DNA of 64,000 nucleotides from Deltaproteobacteria bacterium (GTDB lineage Bacteria; Myxococcota_A; Polyangia; JAAYKL01). Below, piece after piece: positions 8,005-62,285 of this stretch. The translations under genes and the position numbers were made by a program. The DNA lies in assembly GCA_016935665.1 (NCBI GenBank), contig JAFGQN010000148.1:69384-133383 (forward strand), in the 5' to 3' direction. The notes below the pieces were generated by a model. That model saw only the letters and a program-made list of their open reading frames with translations, was not told the DNA's origin and ran no database searches. Within the stretch, counting starts at the first letter, position 1. Each line of letters begins with the position of its first letter.

Positions 8005-8019
8005 GGTATTGCCGCCCGT

Positions 8020-19622: not shown

Positions 19623-19701
19623 TTGGCTCGAAATCTGCACAGCTTAGTTGTGTCAAAGATCACTGACGGACATTGGTGATTTCTAAAAATGGGGAGCAAT
19701 C

Positions 19702-19992: not shown

Positions 19993-20033
19993 TACCGTTT
20001 ACCGAGAAGTTCAACGAATAAGGTTGCTTAAAC

Positions 20034-42903: not shown

Positions 42904-43932
42904 ATGAATCCGAATTTATATCTGTCCAAACCCGGTGTACGAATTCCTGAAGATCGTTATGACAATGATCGAATTGTTGATTTGGTGAAACAGAATTACC
43001 GAGGGAATCGCGTCGCGTGGGTGGCCATAGAAGCGGCGATTCGAAAAATTCTGGGAAAATGCAATACAAAGGTCCGGTATCTGGATTTTGACCGGAACTC
43101 ACGAGTCGCTGGATATGCGGCCGATGCGGCAAGGGATTGTCTCAGCAAAAACAACGCTACTCTCAATGATGTGGATCTTGTTATTTTTGGCGGCGTTGCC
43201 AGACAATACTTTGAACCGGCCACCGCCATGGAGGTTTGCACAAACCTGGGGATAACCGAAACCCATGCATTCGATGTCACCAGTGCCTGTGTGGGACATC
43301 TCGAATCCGTGCAGACCGCCTGTGGTTATCTGAGCATGCATACCGATTATCGCACTGCGCTCGTGGTCACCGCTGAGTTGACGCAGGAGTTTCTGTCGTT
43401 TGATATTCAGTCTCTTTCGGACCTCCAGTACAAGGCCGCCGGTTTAACCATTGGAAATGGCGCTGCAGCGTTCCTGATAAGCAAAAATCCGTGGCCAGGA
43501 GGATGCATGCGTATTGTATCCACCGATACGTACTCAATGCCCGCGCACTGGGATCTGTGCCAGGTGCCCATACGCGGGACCTTCAGTTCATCCTCAACGG
43601 AGTTAATGAAGTTGCATAAACACATTATTCCCAGACTTAAGGTGGTTTTGGAGAAACTGGGATGGGATCCCAACGATGTTGCTCACTACTGTTTTCATCA
43701 GCCCAGCGAGTTCATGACGCAAAAGGTGCTGGCAAAAGTGGGCGCAGATCTCGATAAGGGTGTGTACACACATCATATCTATGGCAACAACGCCAGTGCC
43801 ACCATCGGAATTGTTTTGGACTATTTGCTGTCCCAAAAAGAACTGTCTTCGGGAGAGAAGCTAATGCTGGGCAGTGCTGCATCCGGATTTACGATGGCGA
43901 CCATTTCTGGTATATGGGAAAAAAAAGGATGA
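42904..43932 (+). CDS. 3-oxoacyl-ACP synthase III (FabH)-like thiolase-fold condensing enzyme
   Basis: AFDVTSACVGHLESVQTA (active-site Cys in the FabH context AFD-x-x-x-AC-x-G), and C-terminal His/Asn blocks (HQPSEFMT..., GNNASATIGIVLDYLL). The start codon is uncertain (42856 or 42904). Confidence 0.65.
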   Translation: MNPNLYLSKPGVRIPEDRYDNDRIVDLVKQNYRGNRVAWVAIEAAIRKILGKCNTKVRYLDFDRNSRVAGYAADAARDCLSKNNATLNDVDLVIFGGVARQYFEPATAMEVCTNLGITETHAFDVTSACVGHLESVQTACGYLSMHTDYRTALVVTAELTQEFLSFDIQSLSDLQYKAAGLTIGNGAAAFLISKNPWPGGCMRIVSTDTYSMPAHWDLCQVPIRGTFSSSSTELMKLHKHIIPRLKVVLEKLGWDPNDVAHYCFHQPSEFMTQKVLAKVGADLDKGVYTHHIYGNNASATIGIVLDYLLSQKELSSGEKLMLGSAASGFTMATISGIWEKKG

Positions 43933-44024
43933 GATAGCCGGGAAATTTGCCGTGCATACCAAATTTGTCGGCTTAACACAGAATCAAATGTTTTAATTTT
44001 GGAAACAAACAAGAAGAGGGCCAT

Positions 44025-44861
44025 ATGACGACCTGGAATAAGAAAAAATTATTGAAATCCGTATTTATCTGCGCATTGGCGTTACTATCTCTGCTGTTGG
44101 TGTGTTGTGGCGCTGGGCCGGAAGATGGTGAGAGCAGTGGGGATTCCGACAGTGATGGAGACGGGGATGGCGACGGCGACGGTGATGTAGACCAGATTGA
44201 AGAAGTTGGCGATTTAGAGGGCAGAACATTCGTGTTGGATGAAATTGAGATTACCAAGTGGATGTCACCCGCGGGGCTCGGAAAAGAGTTGGGATCATCT
44301 GTTCCGCCCATGGCGTTTCAAATTACAAGTGCGAAGGATGGCAAACTGACCGCATTGCTCGGAATTGTTGACGGTGACAAGCAGGACAAATGCAATCCGA
44401 CTGTGGAGATGACAGGAACCATCGATGAAGATCCCGATTTTGGCGATAAAGTAAAATTCGAATTAGGTCCCAAAGATTTCGAGGCCATTTTAACCTACCC
44501 GGGACCAGAACCTGGCGATGACGATTTAGTTGTGGTGGCCACTATTCGCGATTTGCAATTAGTTGGTTACCTCAAGGAAGGCGCAACGATCTACGAAGGC
44601 GAAGGGCGAGAATATAATCTTATCGCCACTGTGGATTTCAGGCATATTGCACATCTGTTTTCCGGACAGGTCGACGACCCGGATGGGGATAATCTATGTG
44701 AACAGATGAGTGACCTTTATTCTGGTGTGAAGTGTGAAGCATGTCCCGATGATGATGAGGAGTATTGCGTCACTCTCAAAGGCGCCCAGATCTCAGCAAC
44801 AGCCGTGGCTGGCCTTGACATTAAAGAGGTTGACAAGGTTGGCGACGGGTGTGTGGAATAG
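44025..44861 (+). CDS. Acidic lipoprotein of unknown function (poly-Asp-Gly/Ser linker)
   Basis: Signal/lipobox LSLLLVCCGAG, then [20 protein letters not shown]. The remainder is very acidic with paired Cys and no known motif. Confidence 0.5.
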   Translation: MTTWNKKKLLKSVFICALALLSLLLVCCGAGPEDGESSGDSDSDGDGDGDGDGDVDQIEEVGDLEGRTFVLDEIEITKWMSPAGLGKELGSSVPPMAFQITSAKDGKLTALLGIVDGDKQDKCNPTVEMTGTIDEDPDFGDKVKFELGPKDFEAILTYPGPEPGDDDLVVVATIRDLQLVGYLKEGATIYEGEGREYNLIATVDFRHIAHLFSGQVDDPDGDNLCEQMSDLYSGVKCEACPDDDEEYCVTLKGAQISATAVAGLDIKEVDKVGDGCVE

Positions 44862-44954
44862 CGCGTTTTTAAGCAATCGGTAAAAAGTATTACAACATAA
44901 GTTTTACAACATAGTAATTGAGACGGACTGGCCAGATGGGAGAAAAGAATCTGC

Positions 44955-45968
44955 ATGGGTAAGTTTAACGGTTTTTTTGTTTTCACCACTTTGCTGTTGA
45001 TTGTTGGCGGCGGCTGTTTTGAGATTGTCGAGCCAAAGGCGAATATTCCGGAAAATGTCGAAACCGATAATGTCAGCACGTCCGGGGAAGCAGCATGCGA
45101 TTGTTCAGCAGATGATATGTCAAAGCGAGTGTTTCGATTTATCGAGTTGAACGTGGTTGAGCCGCCCCGCTTGCGAAAAACGATTGATGACCTCTGGTCC
45201 CATGAGCTGAATAATTTTCTTTTGAATGTATTGTTTATAGTAGATGACACCAAAAAATCGGGAGAAAAAAAAGGTGGTTTTTCACAGTTGTCGCTCACTG
45301 TTGGGCCTGGGTGGCGTACACCGGTGGAAGCTGACGAATTGTTTTGGACCTCTGAAAAAGAAGTCGATGAATTGTGTCTTGTGGATGATGATTTAAATCA
45401 GAAAGTGGATGTCACTTCGTTTGACGCGGCGGAGTGCACGTTTGTGAACAGCGATCTTAAAACACTTTATTTTCACATGGGCCACAAAGGAAATCCACTC
45501 ATGTGCGCCCCGCTTCTCAAACAACCCAATGCGACGCCATTGCATGATTTACGTGTGACTTTTCGGTTGAATGAGGATTGCACAGAGCTGAAGGATGGTT
45601 TTTTGAGTGGGTGTATTCCAATATCAGATGCGAATAAAATGTGTATGTGTGGCACAACCGGCGTGTGCGTTCGCGATGGCAACGAAGCGGACGAGCCGTT
45701 CCCGGATGAAATGGGGGAAGATGGGGATGAAACCTGGCCACTGAGTGACTCGCAGGAAAAAGCACTGCTCACATATTGCGTGAATGCCTGCGGCAAGGCA
45801 ACTGATTCGTCATGGTCATCTTACAGAGCTCTGATGGAGTTTGGATCGGATGAACCCACATGTGAAACTCAGAGTGGAGAACCGGGATACCGATTGACTG
45901 CCCGTTTTAAAGCGGAGGAAGTGACAAAACAATATTCCAGCGATCAGACTGTGTGTGAGGAAAATTAA
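44955..45968 (+). CDS. Cysteine-rich lipoprotein of unknown function
   Basis: Signal/lipobox LLLIVGGGC and about 20 Cys spread over 337 aa. No known motif. Confidence 0.45.
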   Translation: MGKFNGFFVFTTLLLIVGGGCFEIVEPKANIPENVETDNVSTSGEAACDCSADDMSKRVFRFIELNVVEPPRLRKTIDDLWSHELNNFLLNVLFIVDDTKKSGEKKGGFSQLSLTVGPGWRTPVEADELFWTSEKEVDELCLVDDDLNQKVDVTSFDAAECTFVNSDLKTLYFHMGHKGNPLMCAPLLKQPNATPLHDLRVTFRLNEDCTELKDGFLSGCIPISDANKMCMCGTTGVCVRDGNEADEPFPDEMGEDGDETWPLSDSQEKALLTYCVNACGKATDSSWSSYRALMEFGSDEPTCETQSGEPGYRLTARFKAEEVTKQYSSDQTVCEEN

Positions 45969-45980
45969 GGGCGGAGCCGT

Positions 45981-47480
45981 ATGATGAGTTGTAAATGCGA
46001 TATCTTTCCTCAGCGGTTTCCAGGGGGCTTCACGAGCGCGGTTCTGGTTGTAATCGGATGTGCCATTGCTTCATCTGGATTTGCCGGAGGAATTTCGGTT
46101 GGGGATCAGGGCGCTGTGGCTGCGGGACGGAGCGGCGCTTTTGTGGCAAAGGCCGATGACCCTTCTGCCATTGAATACAATCCGGCGGGTTTGACGGGGC
46201 TAAAAGGGTGGAACATTTATCTTTCAAATCGGTTTGCATACGCCAGCGAGCGGTATAAACGAGCGACCATTTGGGACTATGATAACGCCGAAATCCATCC
46301 TTTTGGAGAAGTATCCAATCAGAAACCGTGGCAGCTGTTGGGGCCCATGCTGGCGTTAACAACGGATTTTGGATTAAAGGACTGGTCGTTTGCAATTGGC
46401 GCTTATGCACCCGCCGGAATCTCGTCTCAGGAGTTTCCCAGGGACGGCGGACAGCGATACATGCTAACATATCGCGACACAAAAATTCTCTACTATAATG
46501 CAAGTGTCGCCTGGAAACTCAGCGATGTTTTTGGGGTTGGGCTGAGCCTTCAGTGGGTGGATTTGGCTCAGCTGGATTTGCGCCTCGCTGTAAATGGCGA
46601 CGTAAACCCGGCCGCTGTTTCACCCATCTCCCATTTTTTTGATATGGAAGCACGTGTACAAGGAGCGGATCACATCGGCGTGTCGGGAATATTGGGAATG
46701 TGGTACCGTCCATCGCCATCGTTTCAAATGGCATTTTCCAGCCGATTTATCCCCACAAAACTTGAAGCCGATGCCACATTAACATTGGTACCTCTGGATG
46801 AAGACAATAATGGTTCTGTTTCAACACAGAGAAATGGCACGTCGGCCAATGATGTTGTGTTTTCGATGACGTTGCCAATGGAATTTCGCGCTGGGTTTCG
46901 TTACATTCATTTGCGCGGCCAGCAGGAGCTATTTGATGTGGAACTGGATTTTCGGTATGAGCTTTGGTCGCAGATGGAAAGCTATCGGGTAGACGGCACC
47001 GGAATGTCTGCATCAATTGACGGGATTTCAGAGCCGGTGTCAGTGGGGTTGATAGTGGTTCCGAAGAATTGGAAAAATACATTCAGTGTTCGTTTGGGGG
47101 GTGATTTTAATGCCATTGAGAATCGTTTGAAGTTGCGCGCAGGAACGTTTTGGGAAACGGCCGCCGCTCCAAACGAATACGCGTATGTGGATTTTTTGGC
47201 ATCCACCCGAATCGGTGCAAGCTTGGGGGCATCAGTGATTTTGGGGAAATTTGAAATGGCGCTCTCGTATACATACGTGATTGAGGTACCCGTCAAGGTG
47301 CATGAGACGGACGGGAAGATATATCAACAGGTTCCAGGAAGTCGCTGTAAAGGACCCGACTACGACGATCCCACTTTCTGCGATGCGAATTATCAGGGAC
47401 AGCCGTCTGCGACTGTAAATGGCGGTACATATACAAACACTTATCATTTCACATCACTGGCATTGTCCTACAGGTTTTAA
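45981..47480 (+). CDS. FadL/TodX-family outer-membrane hydrophobic-compound transport protein
   Basis: The N-terminal hatch motif GRSGAFVAKADDPSAIEYNPAGL (compare FadL [23 protein letters not shown]) and the C-terminal ...SLALSYRF (aromatic terminal residue of a beta-barrel) are present. Confidence 0.7.
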   Translation: MMSCKCDIFPQRFPGGFTSAVLVVIGCAIASSGFAGGISVGDQGAVAAGRSGAFVAKADDPSAIEYNPAGLTGLKGWNIYLSNRFAYASERYKRATIWDYDNAEIHPFGEVSNQKPWQLLGPMLALTTDFGLKDWSFAIGAYAPAGISSQEFPRDGGQRYMLTYRDTKILYYNASVAWKLSDVFGVGLSLQWVDLAQLDLRLAVNGDVNPAAVSPISHFFDMEARVQGADHIGVSGILGMWYRPSPSFQMAFSSRFIPTKLEADATLTLVPLDEDNNGSVSTQRNGTSANDVVFSMTLPMEFRAGFRYIHLRGQQELFDVELDFRYELWSQMESYRVDGTGMSASIDGISEPVSVGLIVVPKNWKNTFSVRLGGDFNAIENRLKLRAGTFWETAAAPNEYAYVDFLASTRIGASLGASVILGKFEMALSYTYVIEVPVKVHETDGKIYQQVPGSRCKGPDYDDPTFCDANYQGQPSATVNGGTYTNTYHFTSLALSYRF

Positions 47481-47491
47481 TGGATTTGGAA

Positions 47492-49144
47492 ATGAAACGG
47501 ATTTTGAAATATTTATTGTGTACACAGATTCTGGCTTTTGTCCCTGCAGGTGTAACGGCAGGCGTATTCGATGAGGCGGTATCTGGCGGTGATGTCAGTA
47601 CCACATCTGACTCTGCTTCATTTGAAGACACTGCGACGTCCGAATCCGATGCCGAATCCGATGTCGGGGACGATAGCCCTGTTGTTGTGGCAAGTCCGTT
47701 GCAATTTGATTTCAACGGATATGTCAGAGGCGATGTGTTTGCTGGAAAGATGCCGGGCTATTCTCAGACAGAATTAAAAAACGGGTATGGCGAACTCGCT
47801 TTAAAATTGCGTGTTTCAAAAGGATCCTACGGGGATGCTTTTGGGGAAGTCCGTTTCAAAGGCGGCTACCTCAACGATGGCCATTATCTGGGACAACCAT
47901 CAGATGTGGATGCATACGGACAACCCACCCAGGTGGACAGCGCCTCCGAAGATGCCGGGGAAATGGGCGCATCTGTGCAATTGAGAGAAGCCTACGTAAA
48001 CGCATATTTCGGTCGACTGGAAGTGCGTTTGGGACATCAGATTGTGCTTTGGGGACGTGCGGATGGCATTAACCCAACGAACAACATCACGCCCATCGAT
48101 ATACGGGTACGCTCCCCCGAAGAGGACGAACGTCGCCTCGCCAACACAGGTCTGCGCATCAAGCTCGATTTGTCGCCGCTGCGTATCGAAGGCATTTGGA
48201 TGCCATTTTACGCACCGTCCGTGGTGCCTCAAATTATTCTTGGGGACGCCTTGCGATTTGCAGAGCCGGATTATCCGGATTTGGATTTGACCAATGGACT
48301 ATTTGCCGGGAAGATTCACCTCATTTTTCCGGCGATTGAAATGTCTGTCTCTTATTTGAATGGATATTCTTTGACTCCCGGCATCAGATATGTGAAAAAC
48401 AATTTTTCAGCTGAATACTATGACGAAGTTTACGATTCGATTCTGAACCGGACCAAAACAGTGTCACTGAATCGAACTGCTTTTCGGCATCAGGTGATTG
48501 GCTTCGATTTTTCAACCACTTTGGGAAGTTTTATGGGCCTTCGCGGTGAAGTGGCGTTTCGCTACCCTGAAAAGCAGAATGAAGAGACGTTGAAACGGCT
48601 TCATATCCCCAATCCCGAGTTGCATTACGTTTTGGGTGTGGATAAGGAGTTTGGGAATCTTATGGTTGTCGCTCAATATATTGGGCGGTATGTCCTGAAT
48701 TGGAAAGACCTGCCCAAAGCCCGTGACTTTCAAGATGATGACATCGAAGACAGGATAGACGCTCTGAACGCCAAACCTGAGTTTGAAAACCTGGAAGAAA
48801 CAGTTGACTTTAACATTCATGAAGAACTTGTAAACTACGTGGCCAATAGAGAGTTGGTAAAAATCAACCACATGATCCACAACCAGAATTATGAAATTCA
48901 GCACGGCGTTTCGCTGCGATTGAGTTATTCGGCTCTGCACGACACACTCACGCTGGTGGCTTTTGGGATGTTGAATTTCACAACGCAGGAATATGTTTTT
49001 TATCCAAAAATACAATACAAACTCACAGATGCCATGGAGCTCTCGTTGGGAGCAGAGCTTTACTTTGGACCAGAGGAATCGCTGTTTGGAATGATCGATG
49101 AAACCATGAGCGCCGGATATACGGAATTGAAGATATCTTTTTAA
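47492..49144 (+). CDS. Putative outer-membrane beta-barrel protein (DUF1302-like?) adjacent to the MMPL transporter
   Basis: A signal peptide (MKRILKYLLCTQILAFVPAGVTAG), alternating amphipathic beta-strands and a C-terminal ...ELKISF. Alternative ATG at 47480 overlaps the FadL stop. Confidence 0.45.
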   Translation: MKRILKYLLCTQILAFVPAGVTAGVFDEAVSGGDVSTTSDSASFEDTATSESDAESDVGDDSPVVVASPLQFDFNGYVRGDVFAGKMPGYSQTELKNGYGELALKLRVSKGSYGDAFGEVRFKGGYLNDGHYLGQPSDVDAYGQPTQVDSASEDAGEMGASVQLREAYVNAYFGRLEVRLGHQIVLWGRADGINPTNNITPIDIRVRSPEEDERRLANTGLRIKLDLSPLRIEGIWMPFYAPSVVPQIILGDALRFAEPDYPDLDLTNGLFAGKIHLIFPAIEMSVSYLNGYSLTPGIRYVKNNFSAEYYDEVYDSILNRTKTVSLNRTAFRHQVIGFDFSTTLGSFMGLRGEVAFRYPEKQNEETLKRLHIPNPELHYVLGVDKEFGNLMVVAQYIGRYVLNWKDLPKARDFQDDDIEDRIDALNAKPEFENLEETVDFNIHEELVNYVANRELVKINHMIHNQNYEIQHGVSLRLSYSALHDTLTLVAFGMLNFTTQEYVFYPKIQYKLTDAMELSLGAELYFGPEESLFGMIDETMSAGYTELKISF

Positions 49145-49156
49145 GGGGAAACTCGA

Positions 49157-51469
49157 ATGAAGAATAATACTAAACTCGCCGACATTGTAATCAAGTATCC
49201 CTGGCCGTTCATTCTGATTTTTGTTGCTGCAACTGTGTTGGCGGCATACCAGTTGCCGAGGGTGGAACTCGACACGGAGATGAAAAACCAACTGCCGGTC
49301 GATTTGCCCACCCGAAAGAATCTGACAAAAATTGAGAAACTGTTCGGTGGCACAGACATGATCATGATCGTTTTGTCCGCTGACGATATCCTGGATGCGG
49401 CGGTGGCGAAACGCGTAAAGGAGATGTCGAAAAAATTTACGCGCATCAAAGAGTTTGACCGGGTGATCAGTCTTTTTACCGCAAAATCCATTAGCGCGGA
49501 ATATGGCGAGTTAATGGTCGAGCAGTCGGTGCCTCGCATTCCAAAAACAGAGAAATCCCGCGAAAAATTACGTGAGAAGCTGAAGAAAAACGAGTTGGTC
49601 TATGGCAATATTGTGTCCAAAGACTTCAAACATACGGTTCTGATTGGTTTTTTGGCGACGGACGCATCTGACGAAGTTGTTGTTTCGAAGCTCGAAGAAA
49701 TCATCGCCCAAACCCCTGGCCCCGGAAAAGCGCTGATTGGCGGAATGCCGATGACGCGTGTAAAACTTTCAAAGGACATCCGAAAAGACATGTCTCGATT
49801 TCTTCCGGTGGGGCTGGTTCTGATGTTCATCTTTCTCTGGGCATGTTTCCGCGAGGGCCGAAGCGTTTTGATGCCATTTGTTATGACAGTCATGGCAATC
49901 GCCATAGCTTTGGGGTTGCTCTCATTCCTTGGGTGGAAAATACACACGGTTACTGTGTTGCTTCCAGTTATTCTGCTGGCTGTTGCTAATGATTACGGCA
50001 TCCATATCATGGCCCACTATCAATCCGATAAAGCGAGGCATATCGGTTGGTCTTCAAAACAACTGGCGCATTCCGCTATCGCCAGTTTGAATCAGCCCAT
50101 TCTTGCAAGTGGCATAACCACTATTGTTGGATTATTGTGTCTGTTGTCTCATATCATTATACCAGCGGAACAATTGGGCGTTCTCGCAGCAATCGGCGTG
50201 GCATTTGCTGTTGTTGGCAGCCTTGTATTTATACCGGCAGTCATCGCTGTACTTCCGAAACCCAAATTTAAAATTTCAAAAAAAGACAAAGGCCGCGACG
50301 TATCAACCGCGATGACACGACTTCTCGAATTCATGGGAAACAGCGTCGTCAGGAAACCAGGGGCCATTTTAGTTTCCACAGTGGTATTGATGCTCACATT
50401 CGCAGTCGGTTCTTTTTTCATCGTTGTGGACAGCAATCCGATGAGTTTCTACAAGAAAAACGACCCCATCTGGCAGGCAACCAACATGCTGAACAAACAT
50501 TTTGGCGGTTGGGCCGGCATTTCCATTGTTGCAGAAGGTGATATTAAAGATCCCAAAATAATGAAGGAAATTGATGCACTGGAAAAACATTTGAAAAAGC
50601 ACCCGCTGGTGGGAACAACGTCTTCTATCGCAGCTGTGGTTCGAGGAATTAATCAGGTGATGAACGAAGACAACCCTAAAGAAAACCGAGTTCCAGATAC
50701 GAAACAGCTGATTGCTCAATATTTTCTGTTGTATTCATTGAGTGGAGACATTGACGATTTCGATAAGATGGTCGACTTCAAGTATCGACATGCGCAAATC
50801 ATGGCACAGGTCAAAGATAGCGGGACAGCAGCCGCAACGGATGTTGTGGCGTATACGCGCCAATACATAGAATCCCGACCCGGTTCTCCTTTTCGTATGA
50901 TTGGCGGTTTGCTGGATGTCATCACCAATATGGTGGATTATATTGTTCGGGGGCAACTTCTGAGTCTGTTTCTCTCCATCCTGTTATGTGGTGTACTTGT
51001 TGCAATCCTTATGCGATCTCTGATTGCCGGATTAATTGCAATGGTCCCATTAGGTATCGCAGTTTCCATTCTATTTGGGTTAATGGGATTTTTGGGAATA
51101 GAATTGAATCTAATTACAGCAATGCTGTCTTCTATCATGATCGGTGTCGGAATTGACTACACAATCCATTTTCTATGGCGATATCGCGATGAAAGGAAGA
51201 CGGCGATGCCTGCAGAAGCAGTAAAATCGACATTGCACTCCGCTGGACGGGGGATTTTGTTCAATGGATTCTCTGTGGTGGTTGGCTTTGTTGTTTTACT
51301 ATTGTCCCAATTTTTCCCAGTTCAGTTTTTCGGCCTGTTGGTAGTAGTCTCGATTCTATCCTGTTTGGTGGGAGCTCTTGTTATATTGCCAGCGGTCGTC
51401 ATTGTGTTTAAACCGAGGTTCCTGGAACCCAAAAAAAGCGAATTTGAATCAGCAGAAGAGGCGGCTTAA
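49157..51469 (+). CDS. MMPL/RND-superfamily exporter (two 6-TM sterol-sensing-like bundles; HpnN-like lipid exporter family)
   Basis: 770 aa. TM1 is followed by a periplasmic domain and a TM2-6 bundle (ILLAVANDYGIHIMAHY), then a duplicated second half (MLSSIMIGVGIDYTIHFLWRY). This is typical MMPL topology. Confidence 0.7.
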   Translation: MKNNTKLADIVIKYPWPFILIFVAATVLAAYQLPRVELDTEMKNQLPVDLPTRKNLTKIEKLFGGTDMIMIVLSADDILDAAVAKRVKEMSKKFTRIKEFDRVISLFTAKSISAEYGELMVEQSVPRIPKTEKSREKLREKLKKNELVYGNIVSKDFKHTVLIGFLATDASDEVVVSKLEEIIAQTPGPGKALIGGMPMTRVKLSKDIRKDMSRFLPVGLVLMFIFLWACFREGRSVLMPFVMTVMAIAIALGLLSFLGWKIHTVTVLLPVILLAVANDYGIHIMAHYQSDKARHIGWSSKQLAHSAIASLNQPILASGITTIVGLLCLLSHIIIPAEQLGVLAAIGVAFAVVGSLVFIPAVIAVLPKPKFKISKKDKGRDVSTAMTRLLEFMGNSVVRKPGAILVSTVVLMLTFAVGSFFIVVDSNPMSFYKKNDPIWQATNMLNKHFGGWAGISIVAEGDIKDPKIMKEIDALEKHLKKHPLVGTTSSIAAVVRGINQVMNEDNPKENRVPDTKQLIAQYFLLYSLSGDIDDFDKMVDFKYRHAQIMAQVKDSGTAAATDVVAYTRQYIESRPGSPFRMIGGLLDVITNMVDYIVRGQLLSLFLSILLCGVLVAILMRSLIAGLIAMVPLGIAVSILFGLMGFLGIELNLITAMLSSIMIGVGIDYTIHFLWRYRDERKTAMPAEAVKSTLHSAGRGILFNGFSVVVGFVVLLLSQFFPVQFFGLLVVVSILSCLVGALVILPAVVIVFKPRFLEPKKSEFESAEEAA

Positions 51470-51508
51470 TCATGAGTCATCTCTGCGATTCCGGTAAGGA
51501 GGAAAAAA

Positions 51509-52333
51509 ATGAAAGGTAAACTTTTAGCTACTCCCAAAATAGTCACCGTGGCCATAACTGTCGGATTGATAACATCGGTTTATTTGAGCAGCGGTATAAG
51601 CGCCGATTTGTCGGGAATGGACATTATGCAAAAAGCCAATGCCGCTCGTCAGTTGAATGGCTCCGAAGCGGTGATGACGCTTACAATCAAAAATTCAAAA
51701 GGGGAAAAAAGAGTTCGAAAAATTGCCACCGTTACCAAACTTTTTGACAAAGGAAAAACCGAAAAACGAGTTTATCGTTTTCTGTCACCTGCGGATGTAA
51801 AAGGAACCGGCGTATTGACCTTTGACTACGAAACAAAGGGCGACGATATGTGGATTTATCTGCCTGCATTGCGAAAAACCCGTCGTATCGTTACTTCTGA
51901 AAGAGCAAAAAGTTTTATGGGAAGTGAGTTCTCATATGCAGATATGAACACGCCAACTTTGTCGGACTACAAATTCAAAGTGCTTAAAGACGAGAGTGTT
52001 GATGGTGCAAAATGCTGGAAAATTGAAGTTATGCCCAAAAATGACAAAGTGGCTGAAGACGAAGGATATTCCAAAAAATATGTTTGGGTGGCGCAAAATG
52101 AATTCACCATTCGAAAAGCAGAATATTTTGATCTTGATGGCGAACTCCTGAAGATGCTTCACAGCAAGAATATCGAGCTTGTAGACAAAGCACAGAAGCG
52201 ATATCGTTCCAAATATATGGAAATGACAAACAAGCAGAATGGTCGCCAATCCATTTTCGAAATAGAAAAGATTGAAAATGTACCTGACACCAAGGATTCT
52301 TATTTCACTACAAGCTATTTAGAACGCCCTTAA
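51509..52333 (+). CDS. LolA-like outer-membrane lipoprotein-sorting-family protein (frequent partner of MMPL exporters)
   Basis: A signal peptide, then DMWIYLPALRKTRRIVTSERAKSFMGSEFSYADM, which matches the conserved core of the LolA-like family. Confidence 0.6.
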   Translation: MKGKLLATPKIVTVAITVGLITSVYLSSGISADLSGMDIMQKANAARQLNGSEAVMTLTIKNSKGEKRVRKIATVTKLFDKGKTEKRVYRFLSPADVKGTGVLTFDYETKGDDMWIYLPALRKTRRIVTSERAKSFMGSEFSYADMNTPTLSDYKFKVLKDESVDGAKCWKIEVMPKNDKVAEDEGYSKKYVWVAQNEFTIRKAEYFDLDGELLKMLHSKNIELVDKAQKRYRSKYMEMTNKQNGRQSIFEIEKIENVPDTKDSYFTTSYLERP

Positions 52334-52403
52334 TTATAAAGGAAATTTGATGATATGATCGATTGAGGTCACATCTGGGTGATCCCAAAGAAAGGATTCA
52401 AAA

Positions 52404-54080
52404 ATGAACAAGTCTTTATTCCTTTTAATCTGGCTGAGTGCGGTTCTTGCCATGGCTCACTTGTCAGGTTGTGGTGGAGATGACGGTGCGATATCCTCTG
52501 ACGGCGATAGCGACTCGGATAGCGACGGCGATTCGGATGGGGACTCGGATAGCGACAGTGATGCCGATAGCGATTCTGACTCCGACAGCGATAGCGATTC
52601 GGATAGTGATGGCGATAGCGATTCGGACGGTGATGGCGATGATTGTGAGTATACGTGTAGCAATCATTGCGCGTCCATTAACGGAATTCCCATGTCTGGA
52701 GAATGCCCGGGGGAACAGAAATGTTGTGATCTCGGTGATTCTGATGCGGATTCTGACTCCGATGGCGATTCTGATTCAGACGGTGATTCTGATTCTGATT
52801 CTGACTCTGATGGCGACAGTGACGGCGATGCAGAGGGGGATTTCGTTATCGACAAATCAACGTCCAGCAAAATTCCAACTGTCGGTATTGTGAAATGGTC
52901 TCTGGAAGGTGTCAGCAAAATCGACGAGGCGACAATTGAGTTTGGTCAGGATAATAAATATGGAATGGAAGCGCCGGTTGACCTGGAGGAAGCAAATTAT
53001 CGAACTGTGCTTTTAGGGATGAAATCAGAGACGGACTATCATTTTCGTATCGTGGCTAAAAGTGGCGGAAAAACCTATACCAGCTCAGATCAAACGCTGA
53101 AAACCGGTCCAACACTAAGTCTGGAAAAACCAAGAATTGATGTGAAACAAGCCGGCAAAACGAATGACGGGTTTCTTGTTCTTGCATCATACTCCGGTGG
53201 TATGGGTGGACAAAATCCCCAGGGACTTATTTTCGACAATGATGGTGATTTGGTTTGGTTTTATCAGGCAAAAACACTGGTCGACAGTACACGCGCCCGC
53301 TTGAGTTACGATGGCAAGTGGATGGCGGTCGTGCCTGTCAATAATGGCGGTAATGCCGGAAGTATTGCTCTGTGCTCAATTGATGGAGAAGAAACCAAGC
53401 AGTTTAATCTGACCGGCGCGGCTCATGATTTGACACCTACGGATGATAATACATTTGTATTTTTGGAGTATTCAGCCGGTGGTGGTGGCGGTATGATGGG
53501 GATGTCCAGTGCTTGCGCAAAGGCTGTTGAAGTTGATTTGGATGGAAAAACCAATCTGATTTTTGATTCTGCTCAGGTATGGACCAATGATTGTCATGGG
53601 AACGCATTGCGCTACTCGGAGGATGACGGTCTTTTCACCATGTCAGAGTATAATCACAACGAAATTGCCGCTTTTGATAAACAGGGAAAATTAAAATGGG
53701 TTACAAAAAATAATGGCCTCTGGCAGGCGCAGCATGGTCATCATCTTGTTGACGGCAACCATCTGTTGGTTTTCAATAACGGAGGAAATTTGGGGCAAAT
53801 GAATTCTACCAGCATAGCGTTGGAATTCACGGTGGATGGTAGTGGCAATCTCACAAAGGTTTTTGAATATTCGGTCAATGGTTTAGGAACACCGACTTTG
53901 GGAGATATACAGCGACTGCCGAATGGTAATACTCTGGTATCTTACAGCAACTCGGCAATTATTCACGAGGTGGATTCCAGCGGTAGTCTGGTCCGTAGCT
54001 GGGATTTTGGGAAGACAGCGTTTGGATATGTGGTCTGGCGTCCCACTCTCTATGGTCCACCAATCGATTTGAGCATGTAG
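52404..54080 (+). CDS. Lipoprotein with two poly-(Asp-Ser) tracts flanking a Cys-rich module, and a C-terminal beta-propeller resembling arylsulfotransferase (ASST)-family domains
   Basis: Lipobox MAHLSGCGG, then about 50 aa of DSDSDG repeats, [29 protein letters not shown], a second DSD tract, and a propeller with [22 protein letters not shown] (HH-D...NGN blocks as in ASST). Confidence 0.45.
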
Positions 54081-54409
54081 TTACTTTGATTCGTCGCCCC
54101 ACCTTTGGTCAATGAAAATGCAATTCTATAAAATTATTCAGTAAATATCTGGTGGGATGGATGAAACATGTCCTTGCCAGTCTATTTTCAAGATACTCCA
54201 TGTTGAGTGATTTGGAAAATCTTTCATTTTGGTGAAATGATGGTAATGTTTGTACTGGCGGGGACAAATACCCTGTTAAATGAAATTGAAAAGATAGTGC
54301 GCCCAATGGCGTTTTTTCAACCTATTCATGATTGGGAACTCCACCAGTTGAATAAGCAATGTTTGAACAACACACCATACGTGTGATCTCAGTAAAGGAG
54401 ATACAATAA

Positions 54410-55579
54410 ATGACCATATTAAATCGATTATTGATGGTACTTATGGCAGTTTCGCTGCTCGTTTTTCTTGGGATAGGGTGTGGATCTGGCCCAGATGCTG
54501 GGGACAGCGACGTCGATGGTGATTCCGATACGGATGGAGACAGTGATATGGATGGAGACAGTGATATGGATGGAGACAGTGATACGGATGGAGACAGTGA
54601 TACGGATGGAGACGGTGATTCTGATGGTGATGCTCCGAAGACGTGTGATTCTTTTGAAATGGATGAAGATACCATCGTTTTGAAACTAACAGATGACCAG
54701 AATTATAGTTTCTGGAATGAGATTGATATTGAGTCGACATCTGTAAATGCGCGATCTGAAATTATTTTCGATTGGAGTGACCTCAAAGAGGATATGCTGG
54801 GGCGTCCGATGAAACCCGATGAAGATGTTCAGGCGATTCTTGTCTCCGTATGGAAGCATTCTGAGGAAGAAGTCAAAGAATTGATTAATGATGATACCTG
54901 GACAATGAAAAATATTTATCCTCCAGGACGTTTGGTAACAGATGGTTCGCAAACCTCAGCAGAGTATTTCAAGCTGGACACTACGTCCGGTTCTCCCGTT
55001 CCTCTGGAGGATTTAGAAGACTTTATTGATCCAGCAAAGTATGACCCCGAAAAAACAGCCTACACTGTAATGGTTCAAAGTAGCGTCAATCCTGCGAAAG
55101 ATATACGAATGCTGGCAATGTTCAGTGTGGACAAAGACGAAACAAACGATACGGTGAAAATTCATAACGATTCCACAACGCTCGATTACGAGGCTACGTT
55201 GGATGAATTTGAATCCATTGCAATACCCATGGGGACATCAAATATTAAAGTGGACTGGACTAACGGCCCTGTAATGAACGCCATGGGCTTCTATTTCGTA
55301 CCAGAGAACATCCACCGCGTTATGGTTGCATACTACGAAGATGAGACCCTGGAAGATTTGGAGAACAATTTCTTACGCCTGGAAGATATGGCAGAGAGAA
55401 TCTGGCAGGTGGACCATGAACTGGGTTTTTATGAGAATCTTTCCAATCTTGTTGATAAGGATGGGAATTCTTTTAGAGGAATTGGTTCGGAAGGTTTGTA
55501 TGTGCTAACTCTGATCTGCACTGGATGTGCAAATCCTGCCCCATTATTTCTTACTGTACTGGAACCCTGTGAAGAATAA
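54410..55579 (+). CDS. Acidic lipoprotein of unknown function with a (DSDxDG)n linker
   Basis: Lipobox VFLGIGCGSG, then GDSDVDGDSDTDGDSDMDGDSDMDGDSDTDGDSDTDGDGDSDGD. The globular remainder is acidic with no known motif. Confidence 0.5.
   Translation: MTILNRLLMVLMAVSLLVFLGIGCGSGPDAGDSDVDGDSDTDGDSDMDGDSDMDGDSDTDGDSDTDGDGDSDGDAPKTCDSFEMDEDTIVLKLTDDQNYSFWNEIDIESTSVNARSEIIFDWSDLKEDMLGRPMKPDEDVQAILVSVWKHSEEEVKELINDDTWTMKNIYPPGRLVTDGSQTSAEYFKLDTTSGSPVPLEDLEDFIDPAKYDPEKTAYTVMVQSSVNPAKDIRMLAMFSVDKDETNDTVKIHNDSTTLDYEATLDEFESIAIPMGTSNIKVDWTNGPVMNAMGFYFVPENIHRVMVAYYEDETLEDLENNFLRLEDMAERIWQVDHELGFYENLSNLVDKDGNSFRGIGSEGLYVLTLICTGCANPAPLFLTVLEPCEE
54515..54622. repeat. 18-bp near-perfect tandem DNA repeat (x5-6) encoding the DGDSDM/T linker
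   Basis: gatggagacagtgata[t/c]g at 54533-54550, 54551-54568, 54569-54586 and 54587-54604, flanked by diverged copies. Confidence 0.9.
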
Positions 55580-55625
55580 TATGGTCGCCAGCATTTTTTG
55601 AGAAGGAGACGAGAAGGAGACTGCT

Positions 55626-56219
55626 ATGAGAAAAATGTCACACATTTCCTATTTCAGCGTGTTTGTGTTATCCTTGACACTTGCAATTTGCGTCACCATT
55701 TCTGGACAGGCGGATAGTGCACCTCCCAAAACGAAAACCGTTGCTGGGAAATCTCTGAAGCTTCTCGGCACCGCACTTCGGGAGTTTCTGTTTATAGATA
55801 TTTATAAACTGAGTGCTTACTCTGAAAGCGGTGATTGCAAACAAAGTTCAGTGATTTATAATTCGGAAATAAAGTTGTTGGTTTTGGCAATGAAGAAGAC
55901 CATTCCCAAAGAGCGCCTTGTCTCTACTTTAAAAGAGACGTTTATGGACAATCTGCCACAGGGAAAAGACAATTCGGAACTGAAGGGTAAGATTGAAACC
56001 TTTTTGTCGTATTTTAGCAACGATATTAAAAAAGGCAGTTATGTGGAAATTTTGTATCTTCCCGGGCGTGGCACGATGTTGAAGCAAAACGGCGCACAAC
56101 TGGGCCAGGTGACTAAAGGTAAAGGTTTTGCCGATCTTGTTTGGCGATCGTATTTTGGTCCCAACACATGTTGTCCTGGATTGAAATCTGACATTCTGAA
56201 AGAATGTAAATCAGAGTAA
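55626..56219 (+). CDS. Chalcone-isomerase-like (CHI-fold, fatty-acid-binding type) secreted protein
   Basis: A signal peptide, then LKLLGTALREFLFIDIYKLSAY, which matches the CHI-like signature (G-T-G-x-R-x-x-x-F-x-x-I-x-x-Y-x-x-A-L-Y). Confidence 0.55.
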   Translation: MRKMSHISYFSVFVLSLTLAICVTISGQADSAPPKTKTVAGKSLKLLGTALREFLFIDIYKLSAYSESGDCKQSSVIYNSEIKLLVLAMKKTIPKERLVSTLKETFMDNLPQGKDNSELKGKIETFLSYFSNDIKKGSYVEILYLPGRGTMLKQNGAQLGQVTKGKGFADLVWRSYFGPNTCCPGLKSDILKECKSE

Positions 56220-56268: not shown

Positions 56269-57909
56269 CTACATAAGATGCAATGCCAGCCTTTGTTTTA
56301 AATCTTCCTTTTCAAACGGTTTGTAAATCATTTCGTTAATTCCCTCTCGCAAATATTCCTGTTCTGTTGAAGTGGATGATTGCGTTGTGATGAGTAGAAT
56401 TGGGAGTTGCTCTTTATTGTATACCTTCCGGATACGATGTGTGAGTTCCAATCCTGAAACATTGGGCATATTCAAGTCTGTTATGATAAGGTCGGGCTTG
56501 TCGGATGCGATTTCCTCCAACGCGGTTTCAGGAAACTCAAAGAGCTGAAAGTTGTATCCTTCTGTCGCTAAAACATTTTTGTAAATTGCCAGCATCATCC
56601 GTGAATCGTCAATAGCCCAAATTTTTTTCGTTTCATTGGTGACGGCATGCTCCGGCTGCATCGTACTTTGACTGATGGTCTGAACATCACTGATATATCC
56701 ATTATCTTTGAGAAGTTCAACAAAGACGGCTCTTGTATCCACGGGGGCTTTGGTTGAGAGGTATTCAATGGCGAGGTTCCGGAAGACCGGGTTTTTAAAT
56801 AAGCTTAAAAACACATTGGTGGATTCACTGACAATGAATACTTCGACAAAGCGCGCTGCAAGGACATCATCCTGAGAAATCAAGTTGTTTAATCCTGTTT
56901 CAAGTATTTCGTTGAAATTATTATTAATTGCTTTGGCAGCCATTAAAGAGACATGCTCCACCGGGTCCTGCAGTCCTGCCACGAGAGACATGGCGCCTTT
57001 AATAATTGGAAGTTGGCCCAGAACTTCATATGCCGCGAAACGTACATTTGGATTTTCGGGCATATCTTTGAGAAGGCGCCGCACCGGCAGAATGGCGCTT
57101 TCATCGCCAATACTTCCCAATACGTTCAACGTGTGAATCTGCAGGTCGGGATCGGATTGTTTTAGATTTTCAAGTAAAATGGGAACCGCCTTGGGACCGA
57201 TTTCTATCAGTTTGCTTTTTGCATAATTCCTAAGATATGCATGGTGGGAAAGCATGGTGTCATTGAGTTTTTGCAACGCCAGTTTGTTTTGACTGGAAGC
57301 GAATAAATTTAAAATAAGAACATCTATTCCCGTATCGCTTCCCATGCGTTCCGCCAGTTTTTGAATGGCATTTGTGTTGCCGATTGCGCCCAATGCTTCT
57401 ACTGCAGCAACGATGAGTTCTCGATTTCCCGCATAGAGAAAGTCAGCGATTTCACTAACTGCATCTATTGCAAAAAGTTCTCCCAGCACTTTCATTGCGC
57501 TTTTTTGAATGGCAATTATGCCGTTATTTCGTAGCAAATTTATAAGTGGATCGATGGCTTCATCGAGCATCAGCTCTCCGCAAAGCTCGATGAAAAAGGT
57601 TTTCTCCCTGTATTTGTCGTTTGTCAGAGTTGCCAGCAGAACTTCCGGGTTATCTGCCAGTTTTTGTTTTGCAACCCGTTTTAGCGGCTCCACACTATCG
57701 AGCAACTGAGGGCTATATCCGATTAGGTCGGCAAAAAAGGCCCCGGCTTCCTCATGAGCAACCCGGCTGAGTTCAAAAACCGCCCGCCTTTGCCCGTCAT
57801 CGTCGAGTCTGGGGAACTCCTGCAGAATAATTCGTGTCTTGACGGGGTCGAGCTTTTTAAAACACTGAAGGAGTTCTTCGATATATTCACCATTATCGAT
57901 TTTGGGCAT
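56269..57909 (-). CDS. HEAT-repeat protein with a C-terminal response-regulator receiver domain (chemotaxis-cluster associated)
   Basis: N-terminal PBS-lyase-type HEAT repeats (AIDPLINLLRNNG..., AVEALGAIGN...). The C-terminal REC has KKIWAIDDS...DLIITDLNMPNVSG...PILLITT...IYKPF. Confidence 0.65.
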   Translation of the reverse strand: MPKIDNGEYIEELLQCFKKLDPVKTRIILQEFPRLDDDGQRRAVFELSRVAHEEAGAFFADLIGYSPQLLDSVEPLKRVAKQKLADNPEVLLATLTNDKYREKTFFIELCGELMLDEAIDPLINLLRNNGIIAIQKSAMKVLGELFAIDAVSEIADFLYAGNRELIVAAVEALGAIGNTNAIQKLAERMGSDTGIDVLILNLFASSQNKLALQKLNDTMLSHHAYLRNYAKSKLIEIGPKAVPILLENLKQSDPDLQIHTLNVLGSIGDESAILPVRRLLKDMPENPNVRFAAYEVLGQLPIIKGAMSLVAGLQDPVEHVSLMAAKAINNNFNEILETGLNNLISQDDVLAARFVEVFIVSESTNVFLSLFKNPVFRNLAIEYLSTKAPVDTRAVFVELLKDNGYISDVQTISQSTMQPEHAVTNETKKIWAIDDSRMMLAIYKNVLATEGYNFQLFEFPETALEEIASDKPDLIITDLNMPNVSGLELTHRIRKVYNKEQLPILLITTQSSTSTEQEYLREGINEMIYKPFEKEDLKQRLALHLM

Positions 57910-57936
57910 TTGCTCTCCGTCGTTACAAAAAAAGCA

Positions 57937-58770
57937 TCACAGACGCTGATAGTAAATATTTCCGTGAAATTGCTTTTTTTCAAATGGCACATCCATTCCC
58001 ACCAGAGATTCAGTTGATCCAATTACAAGATAACCTCCTGCCGGGAGTTTTTGCGCAATATTGCTAAACAGCCGCTGCTTGTTCTCTTTCGAAAAATAAA
58101 ACGCAACATTTCTGCAGAAAATCACGTCCTGCACCGGAATAGTGGCAGTGCCTGAAAGCAAATTCAGGTGATGAAACGCAACGATACCGCGAAGATCTTC
58201 ATTGACGCGCCACAAATTATCCACCGGAACAAAATGCCTTTTCAATCTGGCGCCAGTCAAACCGCGAGATAGCTCTACCCTACCATACAGAGCCCTGCTG
58301 GCAATTTCCAGTGCGGCATGAGAAATATCAGTGCCGATAATTCGCAAGTCATGATTGTAGAAGTTGCCGAGCAATTCCTTGAGTATCATAGCGATGCTGT
58401 AAACCTCCTGACCGGTGGAAGACGCTGCGCTCCATATTTTCACGCAGGGACGATTACTGTCCATTTGCTTTTCGAGAATATCCGGCAGTAGCTTATGGGC
58501 CAACAGTTCGAATGGTTTGTGATCTCTGAAAAAATATGTCTCGTTGGTCGTGATGGAATCAATAATCTTATGTTTTAATTTTCCCGAACGCTCTCTATAT
58601 GCCTTGTCAATCAACTGTGCATATGACGACACTCCTTCAATTGGCAGAATGGGGCCCAATCGGCTTTCCACCAGATATGATTTGCTGTCATCCAGCACGA
58701 TGCCGCAGTTTTTTTCCACAAACTCTATAACAACGGCAAGGTCTGTTGAATGTACTTTATTCACGTTCAC
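57937..58770 (-). CDS. cheR: Chemotaxis protein methyltransferase CheR
   Basis: TNETYFFRDHKPFELL (CheR N-terminal domain) and VKIWSAASSTGQEVYSIAMIL (SAM-binding region). The probable GTG start overlaps the cheB stop (GTGA). Confidence 0.8.
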   Translation of the reverse strand: MNVNKVHSTDLAVVIEFVEKNCGIVLDDSKSYLVESRLGPILPIEGVSSYAQLIDKAYRERSGKLKHKIIDSITTNETYFFRDHKPFELLAHKLLPDILEKQMDSNRPCVKIWSAASSTGQEVYSIAMILKELLGNFYNHDLRIIGTDISHAALEIASRALYGRVELSRGLTGARLKRHFVPVDNLWRVNEDLRGIVAFHHLNLLSGTATIPVQDVIFCRNVAFYFSKENKQRLFSNIAQKLPAGGYLVIGSTESLVGMDVPFEKKQFHGNIYYQRL

Positions 58771-59834: not shown

Positions 59835-59852
59835 GTCGGTTCCTGTGCGCTT

Positions 59853-61778: not shown

Positions 61779-61807
61779 ATTTTCCCCCGCATTTTTTCGT
61801 TATGGTC

Positions 61808-62260: not shown

Positions 62261-62285
62261 TGTTGTTCTCTCCTTGTCATCGCAA

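Follow-up and report, generated by a model that had tools for sequence, protein, structure and literature searches.

Cassettes of the AmeABCD type combine a DUF1302 β-barrel of the outer membrane (OM), a DUF1329 protein, a Ycf48/BNR propeller and an HAE3-type pump from the superfamily of resistance-nodulation-division (RND) transporters. Examples are AmeABCD of Castellaniella, Sama_1588-1591 of Shewanella, PP_0765/0766 together with PP_2018/2019 of P. putida, and a plasmid-borne cassette of Aromatoleum EbN1 (locus L083). These cassettes have been associated with monoterpene tolerance (PMC6394551) and with growth on fatty esters (10.1101/2020.07.04.188060); their mechanism is not established. 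For the DUF1302 and DUF1329 families a barrel-carrier complex has been predicted with high confidence (interface predicted template modelling score, ipTM, 0.84; PMC13499233), and cofitness with RND pumps has led to the proposal that they export a cell-wall component (10.1101/072470). Here we describe a cluster encoding related proteins in a 64,000-nucleotide stretch of DNA (in the following, the window) from a Deltaproteobacteria bacterium (contig JAFGQN010000148.1). At its core (positions 45981-52333), four genes encode a FadL-family OM channel, a DUF1302 barrel, an MMPL/RND transporter of the inner membrane (IM) and a periplasmic LolA-like protein. A first reading of the DNA, hereafter the original prediction, had proposed an IM-to-OM conduit for a hydrophobic molecule, which, as judged from sequence, still appears the most reasonable function. 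With a probability of about 0.5, the whole cluster of ten genes serves to synthesise a hydrophobic lipid of the envelope and to carry it out of the IM to the OM or the cell surface; the exported lipid is probably unusual and possibly sulfated.

The cluster consists of ten tightly spaced genes on the plus strand (42904-56219, 13.3 kb) and is flanked by greA (minus strand) on one side and a convergent chemotaxis cluster on the other. The gene order is a β-ketoacyl-acyl carrier protein synthase III (KAS III)-like gene, lipA, lipB, FadL, DUF1302 barrel, MMPL, PF17131, an arylsulfate sulfotransferase (ASST)-like gene, lipC and a chalcone isomerase (CHI)-like gene. All ten genes are kept in this order in loci L002 and L003, whose MMPL proteins are 81% and 77% identical to that of the window. 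The source is a metagenome-assembled genome (MAG) labelled 'Deltaproteobacteria bacterium' at NCBI; the nearest relatives are Zodletone MAGs and MAGs of Myxococcota/Polyangiaceae. The original prediction missed this ten-gene unit, which begins with an OleA-like condensing enzyme, and described the four central genes, whose consecutive arrangement on one strand was confirmed (499, 554, 770 and 274 amino acids). The stop codon of the FadL gene (47478-47480) and the ATG of the barrel gene (47480) overlap as TAATG, although the NCBI gene call starts the barrel at ATG 47492, 12 nt further in (550 amino acids). The gaps between barrel and MMPL and between MMPL and carrier are 12 and 39 bp, respectively. 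A wider gap of 329 bp (54081-54409) separates the ASST-like gene from lipC and contains a hairpin and a T-run at 54299-54320; together with the strong ribosome binding site of lipC, this suggests that lipC and the CHI-like gene may have their own transcript. Promoter and terminator scans gave signals no better than in shuffled sequence. In L002 and L003, a second ASST paralogue occupies the position of this gap. Pfam and NCBIfam scans of the cluster revealed no gene for a membrane fusion protein (MFP) or TolC-type protein.

Pfam and NCBIfam matches, together with two AlphaFold2 (AF2) models, uphold the earlier assignment of the four products as a FadL channel, an OM barrel ending in Phe, an MMPL/RND pump and a LolA-like protein. 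The pump (49157-51469, plus strand) matches MMPL (PF03176) with E 3.4e-43, and its best NCBIfam model is HAE3 (TIGR00921; 304.9 bits, E 9.8e-91, below the curated cut-off of 351.9), the name also given to its homologues in the Joint Genome Institute (JGI) annotation. Hydropathy predicts about 12 transmembrane segments in a 1 + 5 + 1 + 5 arrangement with periplasmic loops at residues 34-212 and 425-592, each of ~170-180 amino acids. Two Asp-Tyr pairs, D279/Y280 and D667/Y668, show no or almost no variation among 14 diverse homologues. Kinship to other pumps was compared by bit scores: the RND pump of the Aromatoleum EbN1 plasmid cassette aligns with 201 bits (24.7% identity) and an A. baumannii MMPL protein, whose gene is followed by PF17131-like and DUF1302-like genes, with 216 bits, while the best solved relatives, HpnN (5KHN, E 7.5e-15), MmpL5 and MmpL4, all reach ~55-57 bits. 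By this measure, the nearest relatives of the pump are the RND pumps of DUF1302/DUF1329 (AmeABCD-type) cassettes.

The original prediction placed the pump in the HpnN-like class of hopanoid exporters. An HpnN-type exporter of hopanoids, or of sterols or carotenoids, would fit 5KHN as best-scoring solved RND relative and an HAE3 family that contains HpnN (PMC6394551). However, the HpnN models TIGR03480 and NF052374 score 119.7 and 81.5 bits against cut-offs of 751.85 and 1100; the HpnN and BstA equivalog models range from 64 to 120 bits against cut-offs of 750-1400, and the actII models also stay far under their cut-off. MmpL4 and MmpL5 score about equal to HpnN, and the pumps of DUF1302 cassettes much higher. 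Moreover, no hopanoid or carotenoid genes (shc, hpn, crt) are found among the window open reading frames (ORFs) scanned, and the AmeD paper describes HpnN as functioning with neither a barrel nor a LolA-like partner (PMC6394551). Model scores and lack of hopanoid genes among the scanned ORFs effectively refute HpnN membership, leaving this function next to no probability. A grouping with HAE1 multidrug pumps was not seen: the alignment to the AcrB-type pump of the window is marginal (E 6e-4), and no HAE1 chain appears among the PDB matches. The AcrB-type gene, at the window edge (101-3202), encodes a full-length HAE1 RND pump (ACR_tran E 2e-239) unrelated to the MMPL protein; its partner genes, if there are any, would be located beyond the window.

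The barrel gene (47480-49144, alternative start 47492, plus strand) encodes a protein matching PF06980 with E 1.6e-10 (41 bits, cut-off 23.2), with only profile positions 97-218 of 541 aligned; PF06980 is annotated on all 120 barrel homologues listed. In its AF2 model (predicted local distance difference test, pLDDT, 80.6), the protein forms an OM barrel of ~18-20 strands, with generic Occ/porin matches (template modelling (TM) score 0.5-0.6) and a C-terminal Phe (...KISF); it also carries a signal peptide. A direct PDB sequence search returned no match, and similarity to the canonical DUF1302 protein of Aromatoleum is confined to one local motif (E 2e-6). The model agrees with the published DUF1302 fold (PMC13499233).

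The putative periplasmic carrier (51509-52333, plus strand) belongs to PF17131 (LolA_like/TP_0789-like, 'LolA3'-type; E 7.5e-56, 189.1 bits, cut-off 30). Among solved structures, it is related to 9TP6 (LolA3 of P. gingivalis, E 8e-39), 3BK5 (E 3.5e-32) and 4Z48 (E 3.8e-23); neither the canonical LolA family nor a solved LolA chain was among the matches returned from Pfam, NCBIfam and PDB. A partial DUF1329 match covers a 57-residue stretch (37.8 bits), and the alignment with DUF1329 extends over 124 amino acids (E 1e-8). The protein has an N-terminal signal sequence without a lipobox Cys, and its gene adjoins the RND pump, not lolCDE. LolA3-PG (PGN0947) possesses a hydrophobic groove, yet binds LolB very weakly (PMC13103446), which speaks for a dedicated function apart from the Lol pathway. 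Deletion of lolA3 in F. johnsoniae gave no phenotype (PMC11885536), and both LolA3 papers (PMC13103446, PMC11885536) are silent on a neighbouring pump.

In order to assess the conservation of the arrangement, one genome per species was scanned for MMPL relatives, which yielded 80 loci. Clustering of their ORFs assigned a member of the barrel family to 68 loci and one of the LolA-like family to 60. Barrel, MMPL and LolA-like genes (in the following, the trio) share a strand and a stretch of at most 6 kb in 46 of the 58 loci with enough flanking DNA, a lower bound, as some ORFs were lost to the overlap filter; in 43 loci the order is barrel, MMPL, LolA-like. The trio spans about 20 differently labelled lineages, with record titles including Myxococcota, KSB1, Aminicenantes, Ignavibacteria, Leptospirales, Spirochaetales, Fibrobacterota, Latescibacteria, Calditrichia, Bacteroidota, Rhodothermaceae and Halanaerobiales, among others; it was additionally found in Haliovirga, Prevotella and A. 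baumannii. The claim that a LolA-fold protein habitually accompanies such exporters is borne out, and since the trio is ordered alike in dozens of genomes, the arrangement is more than chance. No functional study of the barrel-pump-carrier arrangement was found in the literature.

Several trio loci deviate in order or labelling. In A. baumannii (L092, 6001-10244), genes for an MMPL protein, a PF17131-like protein and a DUF1302-like barrel occur in permuted order and are unannotated in the record. Three Halanaerobiales MAGs labelled as diderm Firmicutes (L033, L055, L077) show the orders MMPL-LolA-barrel or LolA-barrel-MMPL-TetR, and several trio MAGs are labelled 'Eubacteriales', which suggests mislabelling or diderm lineages. 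In Prevotella nigrescens (L093, 1424-10398), the genes form a TetR-ABC-ABC-MMPL-LolA3-like-DUF1302 operon, in which the 'hypothetical' gene of the oral Bacteroidota operons corresponds to the DUF1302 barrel. The trio operons of P. gingivalis and P. intermedia belong to the genes that respond to limitation of iron or hemin with the strongest induction (PMC10434189, PMC10470040).

The four-gene order with FadL is repeated in the closest four relatives (L002, L003 and L085/L086), and FadL adjoins the trio only where the MMPL protein is at least 63% identical. The FadL protein (45981-47480, plus strand) matches Toluene_X (PF03349) with E 1.3e-18 (67.1 bits, cut-off 29.7) over profile positions 3-399 of 421. 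Its AF2 model has a pLDDT of 88.3 and agrees with the 14-strand barrel and N-terminal hatch of this family, and the top Foldseek match is E. coli FadL (E 1.5e-24, TM score 0.77-0.80), followed by CymD, TbuX and TodX; a direct PDB sequence search gave no match. Sequence and model display a signal peptide, short N-terminal helices, an NPAGL motif and a C-terminal Phe. A second survey covered the neighbourhoods of homologues 42-57% identical to the window FadL protein. A gene for a Cys-rich lipoprotein, lipB (44955-45968, plus strand, in the window), lies directly upstream of FadL in eight loci, four of which have no nearby trio. The lipB homologues in L084, L085, L087, L088 and L089 (32-36% identity, E 1e-46 to 1e-62) abut FadL on its upstream side, and in L084, L087, L088 and L089 the trio is absent within 9-10 kb. 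LipB has 10 Cys residues that are invariant among its homologues, lacks a Pfam match and belongs to a rare family, of which a set of 1.84 billion representatives contains 45 clusters at E<=1e-3; this unannotated family may act as an accessory or cap protein of FadL.

These neighbourhoods indicate that the four genes are a lipB-FadL pair and a barrel-MMPL-LolA trio, joined in this lineage. Conservation of gene order, on which the original prediction was made to depend, holds for the trio across many lineages, while that of FadL is limited to close relatives, and the view of the four genes as one module did not stand, since FadL elsewhere travels with lipB and a KAS III/sulfotransferase set and without the trio. 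In L088 (5006-10482) and L089 (4980-13371), genes for a polysaccharide deacetylase, a KAS III enzyme 47% identical to that of the window, a sulfotransferase, a PHP-domain protein, lipB and FadL follow one another in this order as a compact, conserved group, with two ASST-like genes (L089) or a metallophosphoesterase gene (L088) on the opposite strand. From its gene content, this trio-less cluster looks like a self-contained sulfated-metabolite module. L090 (7142-13228) combines CHI-like, lipA-like, FadL, DUF1302 and PF17131 genes with no adjacent MMPL gene, and thus barrel and carrier genes can be separate from that of the pump.

Two separate clades in a neighbour-joining tree of MMPL sequences, B1 and B2, comprise loci that lack TetR genes. 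B1 comprises the window, L002-L005, L007 and L009, and B2 comprises L023, L026, L029, L034, L054, L069 and L070 (KSB1, Fibrobacterota and others). Hidden Markov model searches over all locus ORFs revealed TetR in 0/14 loci of B1 and B2 and in 48/67 of the others, where it is typically located between barrel and pump. The two clades are also set apart by FadL-family genes (6/14 versus 0/67; FadL is absent from all TetR-type loci), ASST-like genes (11/14 versus 4/67), KAS III (8/14 versus 1/67), sulfotransferases (4/14 versus 0/67) and metallophosphoesterases (5/14 versus 0/67). A typical B2 locus encodes FadL, ASST, KAS III, a sulfotransferase, f16 (a conserved ORF family without annotation), a TPR protein and the barrel, followed by MMPL, the LolA-like protein, ATP sulfurylase, adenosine 5'-phosphosulfate (APS) kinase, a glycosyltransferase and ASST. 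That the same accessory genes recur in two MMPL clades favours a functional connection over neighbourhood by chance.

The nature of these genes points to sulfation. The KAS III gene is abutted by a sulfotransferase gene in L003 (directly upstream), L034, L070, L088 and L089; the L003 enzyme best resembles 2Z6V and 2ZQ5 (E 2e-6), which we take to be mycobacterial Stf-type enzymes. ATP sulfurylase and APS kinase genes lie downstream of the trio in L023, L034 and L070, and in the metagenomic locus L085 (MMPL 63% identical) an APS kinase gene is situated within the cluster, between lipA and lipB. PHP proteins include phosphatases of 3'-phosphoadenosine 5'-phosphate (pAp), a role which would fit a pathway consuming 3'-phosphoadenosine 5'-phosphosulfate (PAPS). 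For PAPS synthesis, the window carries cysNC (a CysN-APS kinase fusion) and cysD on the minus strand (6082-8910), ~35 kb upstream of the cluster.

These distributions bear on a second explanation, in which the trio, as proposed for AmeABCD, is an inducible pump for efflux or tolerance that drives hydrophobic toxicants of external origin, dissolved in the membrane, out across both membranes, with the genes next to it as passengers of unrelated function. With the related AmeABCD, monoterpene tolerance is higher and less Nile Red accumulates (PMC6394551), and the position of TetR in the 48 of 67 loci outside the TetR-less clades is typical of substrate-induced efflux operons. However, the clades including the window are devoid of TetR, biosynthetic and sulfation genes recur in both, and the genes of the window cluster are close-packed on a single strand. 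Efflux is therefore regarded as unlikely for the window cluster.

The first gene of the cluster (42904-43932, plus strand; Pfam ACP_syn_III and ACP_syn_III_C) encodes a thiolase-fold condensing enzyme of the KAS III type. Its closest solved relatives are 3ROW, 3S21 and 4KTI (E 1e-17), presumably all OleA of X. campestris. The alignment with 3ROW retains Cys in the segment TSAC, His in FHQPS and Asn in GNNAS, as well as the equivalent of Glu117, located in YFEPATA of the window enzyme and YLEPSTA of OleA. In X. campestris OleA, catalysis depends on a Cys-His-Asn triad and on Glu117 as base, this Glu being specific to head-to-head condensing enzymes; FabH has Phe at the same position. In L085, L088 and L089, orthologues with 47-62% identity have a sulfotransferase or FadL gene as neighbour. 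The cluster contains no α/β-hydrolase, AMP-ligase-like or short-chain dehydrogenase/reductase genes that could correspond to oleB, oleC and oleD, and no OleBCD is encoded in the window. A KAS III-like gene adjacent to the trio of Haliovirga (24% identity, without the Glu and His residues) was left uncounted as an orthologue.

The remaining four genes encode proteins predicted to act outside the cytoplasm. LipA (44025-44861, plus strand) is an acidic, Cys-rich lipoprotein with a signal peptide, a Cys and an Asp/Ser/Gly-rich linker; it has no Pfam or NCBIfam match and is kept with the cluster in L002, L003, L004, L009 and L085, and weakly in L090. Downstream of the trio, the ASST-like protein (52404-54080, plus strand) is a β-propeller lipoprotein with an LSGC lipobox and a long Ser/Asp linker, which matches PF05935 (37.0 bits, cut-off 24.2) and PF14269 (33.1 bits, cut-off 27); a PDB search gave weak matches to 9KF6 and 9KF4, both termed 'Sulfotransferase', and L002 and L003 each have two ASST-like paralogues at the cluster. 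LipC (54410-55579, plus strand), an acidic lipoprotein with a lipobox and an Asp/Ser-rich linker, has domain matches confined to its repeat region and is conserved in L002, L003, L004 and L009, the last with two copies. The secreted CHI-like protein (55626-56219, plus strand), the product of the last gene, has a signal peptide, matches Chalcone_3 (PF16036, E 7.6e-23) and is encoded at the same position in L002 and L003; its L090 counterpart (53% identity) adjoins FadL-DUF1302-PF17131 genes. Pairwise comparison of lipA, lipB, lipC, f16, the TPR protein and the CHI-like protein with hhalign revealed no homology beyond signal peptides. Asp/Ser/Gly repeat linkers following a lipobox occur at 44100-44200, 52490-52830, 54490-54630 and ~31900-32050 (minus strand) of the window and cause spurious MSCRAMM (SdrC/ClfA) and TrAA12 matches, including in the GDSL lipase at 31021-32133.

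The four lipoproteins with long acidic linkers encoded around the trio raise the alternative of a dedicated sorting system, in which the LolA-like protein would ferry LipA, LipB, the ASST-like protein and LipC and the barrel would expose them at the surface. The name given to PF17131 proteins by the Prokaryotic Genome Annotation Pipeline (PGAP), 'outer membrane lipoprotein-sorting protein', is in line with this. However, adjacent lipoprotein genes are missing from most trio loci, and we know of no RND pump that extracts lipoproteins, a task performed by LolCDE. LolA3-PG, moreover, does not pair with LolB, and the lolA3 deletion of F. johnsoniae is without a lipoprotein-related phenotype (PMC13103446, PMC11885536), which leaves lipoprotein sorting improbable.

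The gene products also allow the opposite direction of transport, with FadL and LipB importing external hydrophobic or sulfated aromatics, the ASST-like protein transferring or removing sulfate in the periplasm and the trio serving as a periplasmic overflow valve or handling aid. ASSTs act on external phenolic sulfates, and the studied FadL/TodX channels, whose fold the window protein shares, are all importers. P. putida requires its DUF1302/DUF1329 genes to grow on Tween 20 and fatty esters (10.1101/2020.07.04.188060), ameB is required for growth on monoterpenes (PMC6394551), and the canonical Aromatoleum cassette is surrounded by β-oxidation-type genes. Against uptake stand the absence of catabolic enzymes from the cluster, the anabolic nature of its conserved partners (condensing enzyme, PAPS-dependent sulfotransferase, ATP sulfurylase, APS kinase) and the outward direction in which RND pumps carry their substrates. 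Uptake and processing are accordingly considered distinctly unlikely.

Synthesis and export of a lipid thus remain the favoured explanation, and the following route can be envisaged. In the cytoplasm, the OleA-like KAS III enzyme would condense two acyl chains head to head, and the product would probably be O-sulfated, in the relatives, with PAPS and a sulfotransferase. The HAE3-like MMPL pump might then lift the lipid from the IM at the expense of the proton gradient via its conserved Asp-Tyr relay, and the soluble PF17131 protein could ferry it across the periplasm to the OM, where the DUF1302 barrel would take it up. FadL and LipB may pass the lipid laterally between the OM bilayer and the outside, and the ASST-like protein, LipA, LipC and the CHI-like protein could bind or modify it outside the cytoplasm. 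We infer the cargo, the order of hand-over, sulfation in this genome and the direction of FadL traffic from gene identities, folds, conservation and co-occurrence.

Several observations weigh against this explanation. To our knowledge, all characterised FadL/TodX proteins import and do not export. In the majority of trio loci a TetR gene is present and biosynthetic genes are missing, a pattern in keeping with inducible efflux, and the iron and hemin response of the oral Bacteroidota operons implies that the cargo of the family is not uniform. The window cluster contains no sulfotransferase, PHP phosphatase or in-cluster APS kinase gene, and the ASST-like assignment is based on modest Pfam scores. 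The KAS III enzymes of clade B2 represent a different subfamily without the OleA Glu, so that the chemistry need not match between B1 and B2.

A broader, tentative proposal is that the trio constitutes a general, hitherto unrecognised trans-envelope lipid exporter of diderm bacteria which operates without MFP or TolC and extends from Myxococcota to A. baumannii, covering Bacteroidota, Spirochaetes, Fusobacteriota and diderm Firmicutes. In two lineages it might have been recruited together with FadL-LipB for the surface delivery of new sulfated, head-to-head-condensed lipids, as a diderm counterpart of the export of sulfolipids by MmpL8 in mycobacteria. The joint claim is possible, though doubtful as a whole.

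Since the components are already annotated in RefSeq, the element of surprise is limited. As far as the searchable literature shows, however, the repeated coupling of the trio to sulfation and condensing-enzyme genes is undescribed, and interest is raised by the very wide distribution of the trio, including pathogens, without an assigned function. Should the trio be a self-contained conveyor of lipids between IM and OM, a function would be gained for DUF1302 proteins, PF17131/LolA3 proteins and non-HpnN HAE3 pumps, three widespread families that include proteins of high abundance or under strong regulation in P. gingivalis, Prevotella, T. pallidum and A. baumannii. Such a conveyor would represent a fourth lipid route to the OM besides Lpt, Lol and the Mla/AsmA-type systems. 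The recurrent association with an OleA-like enzyme and with sulfation genes suggests that uncultured Myxococcota-like, KSB1 and Fibrobacterota bacteria have a sulfated lipid in their envelope that is so far undescribed, and the FadL-lipB pairing offers a handle on whether FadL channels serve export besides import.

Elsewhere in the window, the chemotaxis cluster (56269-63995, minus strand) encodes a HEAT-repeat response regulator, CheR, CheB, a PAS-MCP protein and a CheW/REC/HATPase protein truncated where the window ends. A gene for a Sulfatase+HEAT protein (36535-39474) overlaps recG by 4 nt, an IS200-like Y1 transposase gene (32648-33628) is located in a low-GC stretch (~45%), and a tRNA (9242-9313) is the sole Rfam match in the window. 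Genes for a glycosyltransferase, a GH130 phosphorylase, a B12-binding radical SAM enzyme and a diacylglycerol kinase-like lipid kinase (15851-23231) may form another envelope or lipid-related locus.

Comparison with known systems places the parts of the cluster in different company. The condensing enzyme is akin to OleA of the OleABCD olefin pathway and to PpyS, MxnB/CorB and DarB, ketosynthases that form pyrones or resorcinols by head-to-head condensation, with OleA as best solved relative and Cys-His-Asn and Glu kept; the cluster differs from OleABCD by the low identity of the enzyme (E 1e-17) and by the lack of OleB, OleC and OleD genes in the window. Aryl-polyene and flexirubin clusters are built on the same logic, in that genes for lipid biosynthesis are combined with RND and LolA-fold genes dedicated to exporting a product located in the OM (PMC8253772, PMC11885536). 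Their enzymes are type II polyketide synthase-like in contrast to the single OleA-like KAS III of the window, their LolA-fold proteins belong to the LolA2/LolB2 subfamilies rather than the LolA3 type, and neither a DUF1302 barrel nor a FadL gene has been reported in them.

HpnN and MmpL3/4/5/8, exporters of endogenous lipids and of siderophores, share with the window pump the MMPL fold, small periplasmic domains and Asp-Tyr proton-relay pairs. Similarity is weak (<=57 bits, cut-offs unmet), however, and these pumps are not accompanied by a DUF1302 or PF17131 partner. MmpL8 and the sulfotransferase Stf0 in sulfolipid-1 formation of M. tuberculosis provide a functional analogy. The TetR-(ABC-ABC)-MMPL-LolA-DUF1302 operons of oral Bacteroidota (P. 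gingivalis PG1175-81) contain the same three families under the same PGAP names, although their MMPL protein is only ~23% identical to the window pump. Unlike the window, they carry TetR and two ABC ATPase genes and are devoid of KAS III, FadL and ASST. Their induction by iron or hemin limitation is 13- to 220-fold (PMC10434189, PMC10470040).

Cassettes of the AmeABCD type share a PF06980 barrel, a LolA-superfamily protein and an MMPL/HAE3-like pump with the window cluster, and MFP and TolC are absent from both. In both, barrel and RND genes are adjacent, and the pump is closer to the cassette RND pumps (201-216 bits, 25-26% identity) than to solved RND structures. The cassettes differ in that the window cluster lacks a Ycf48/BNR (COG4447) gene and has the ASST-like protein as sole propeller, and its carrier is a short PF17131 protein (274 amino acids) compared with ~420-450 amino acids for DUF1329. 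Barrel similarity is restricted to one motif, the gene order, Ycf48-MMPL-DUF1302-DUF1329 on the Aromatoleum plasmid, is different, and the context is biosynthetic instead of catabolic. Taken together, the RND match of 201-216 bits, the barrel motif and the alignment of the carrier with DUF1329 indicate that the trio is, at the level of sequence, a distant, simplified relative of the AmeABCD-type cassette.

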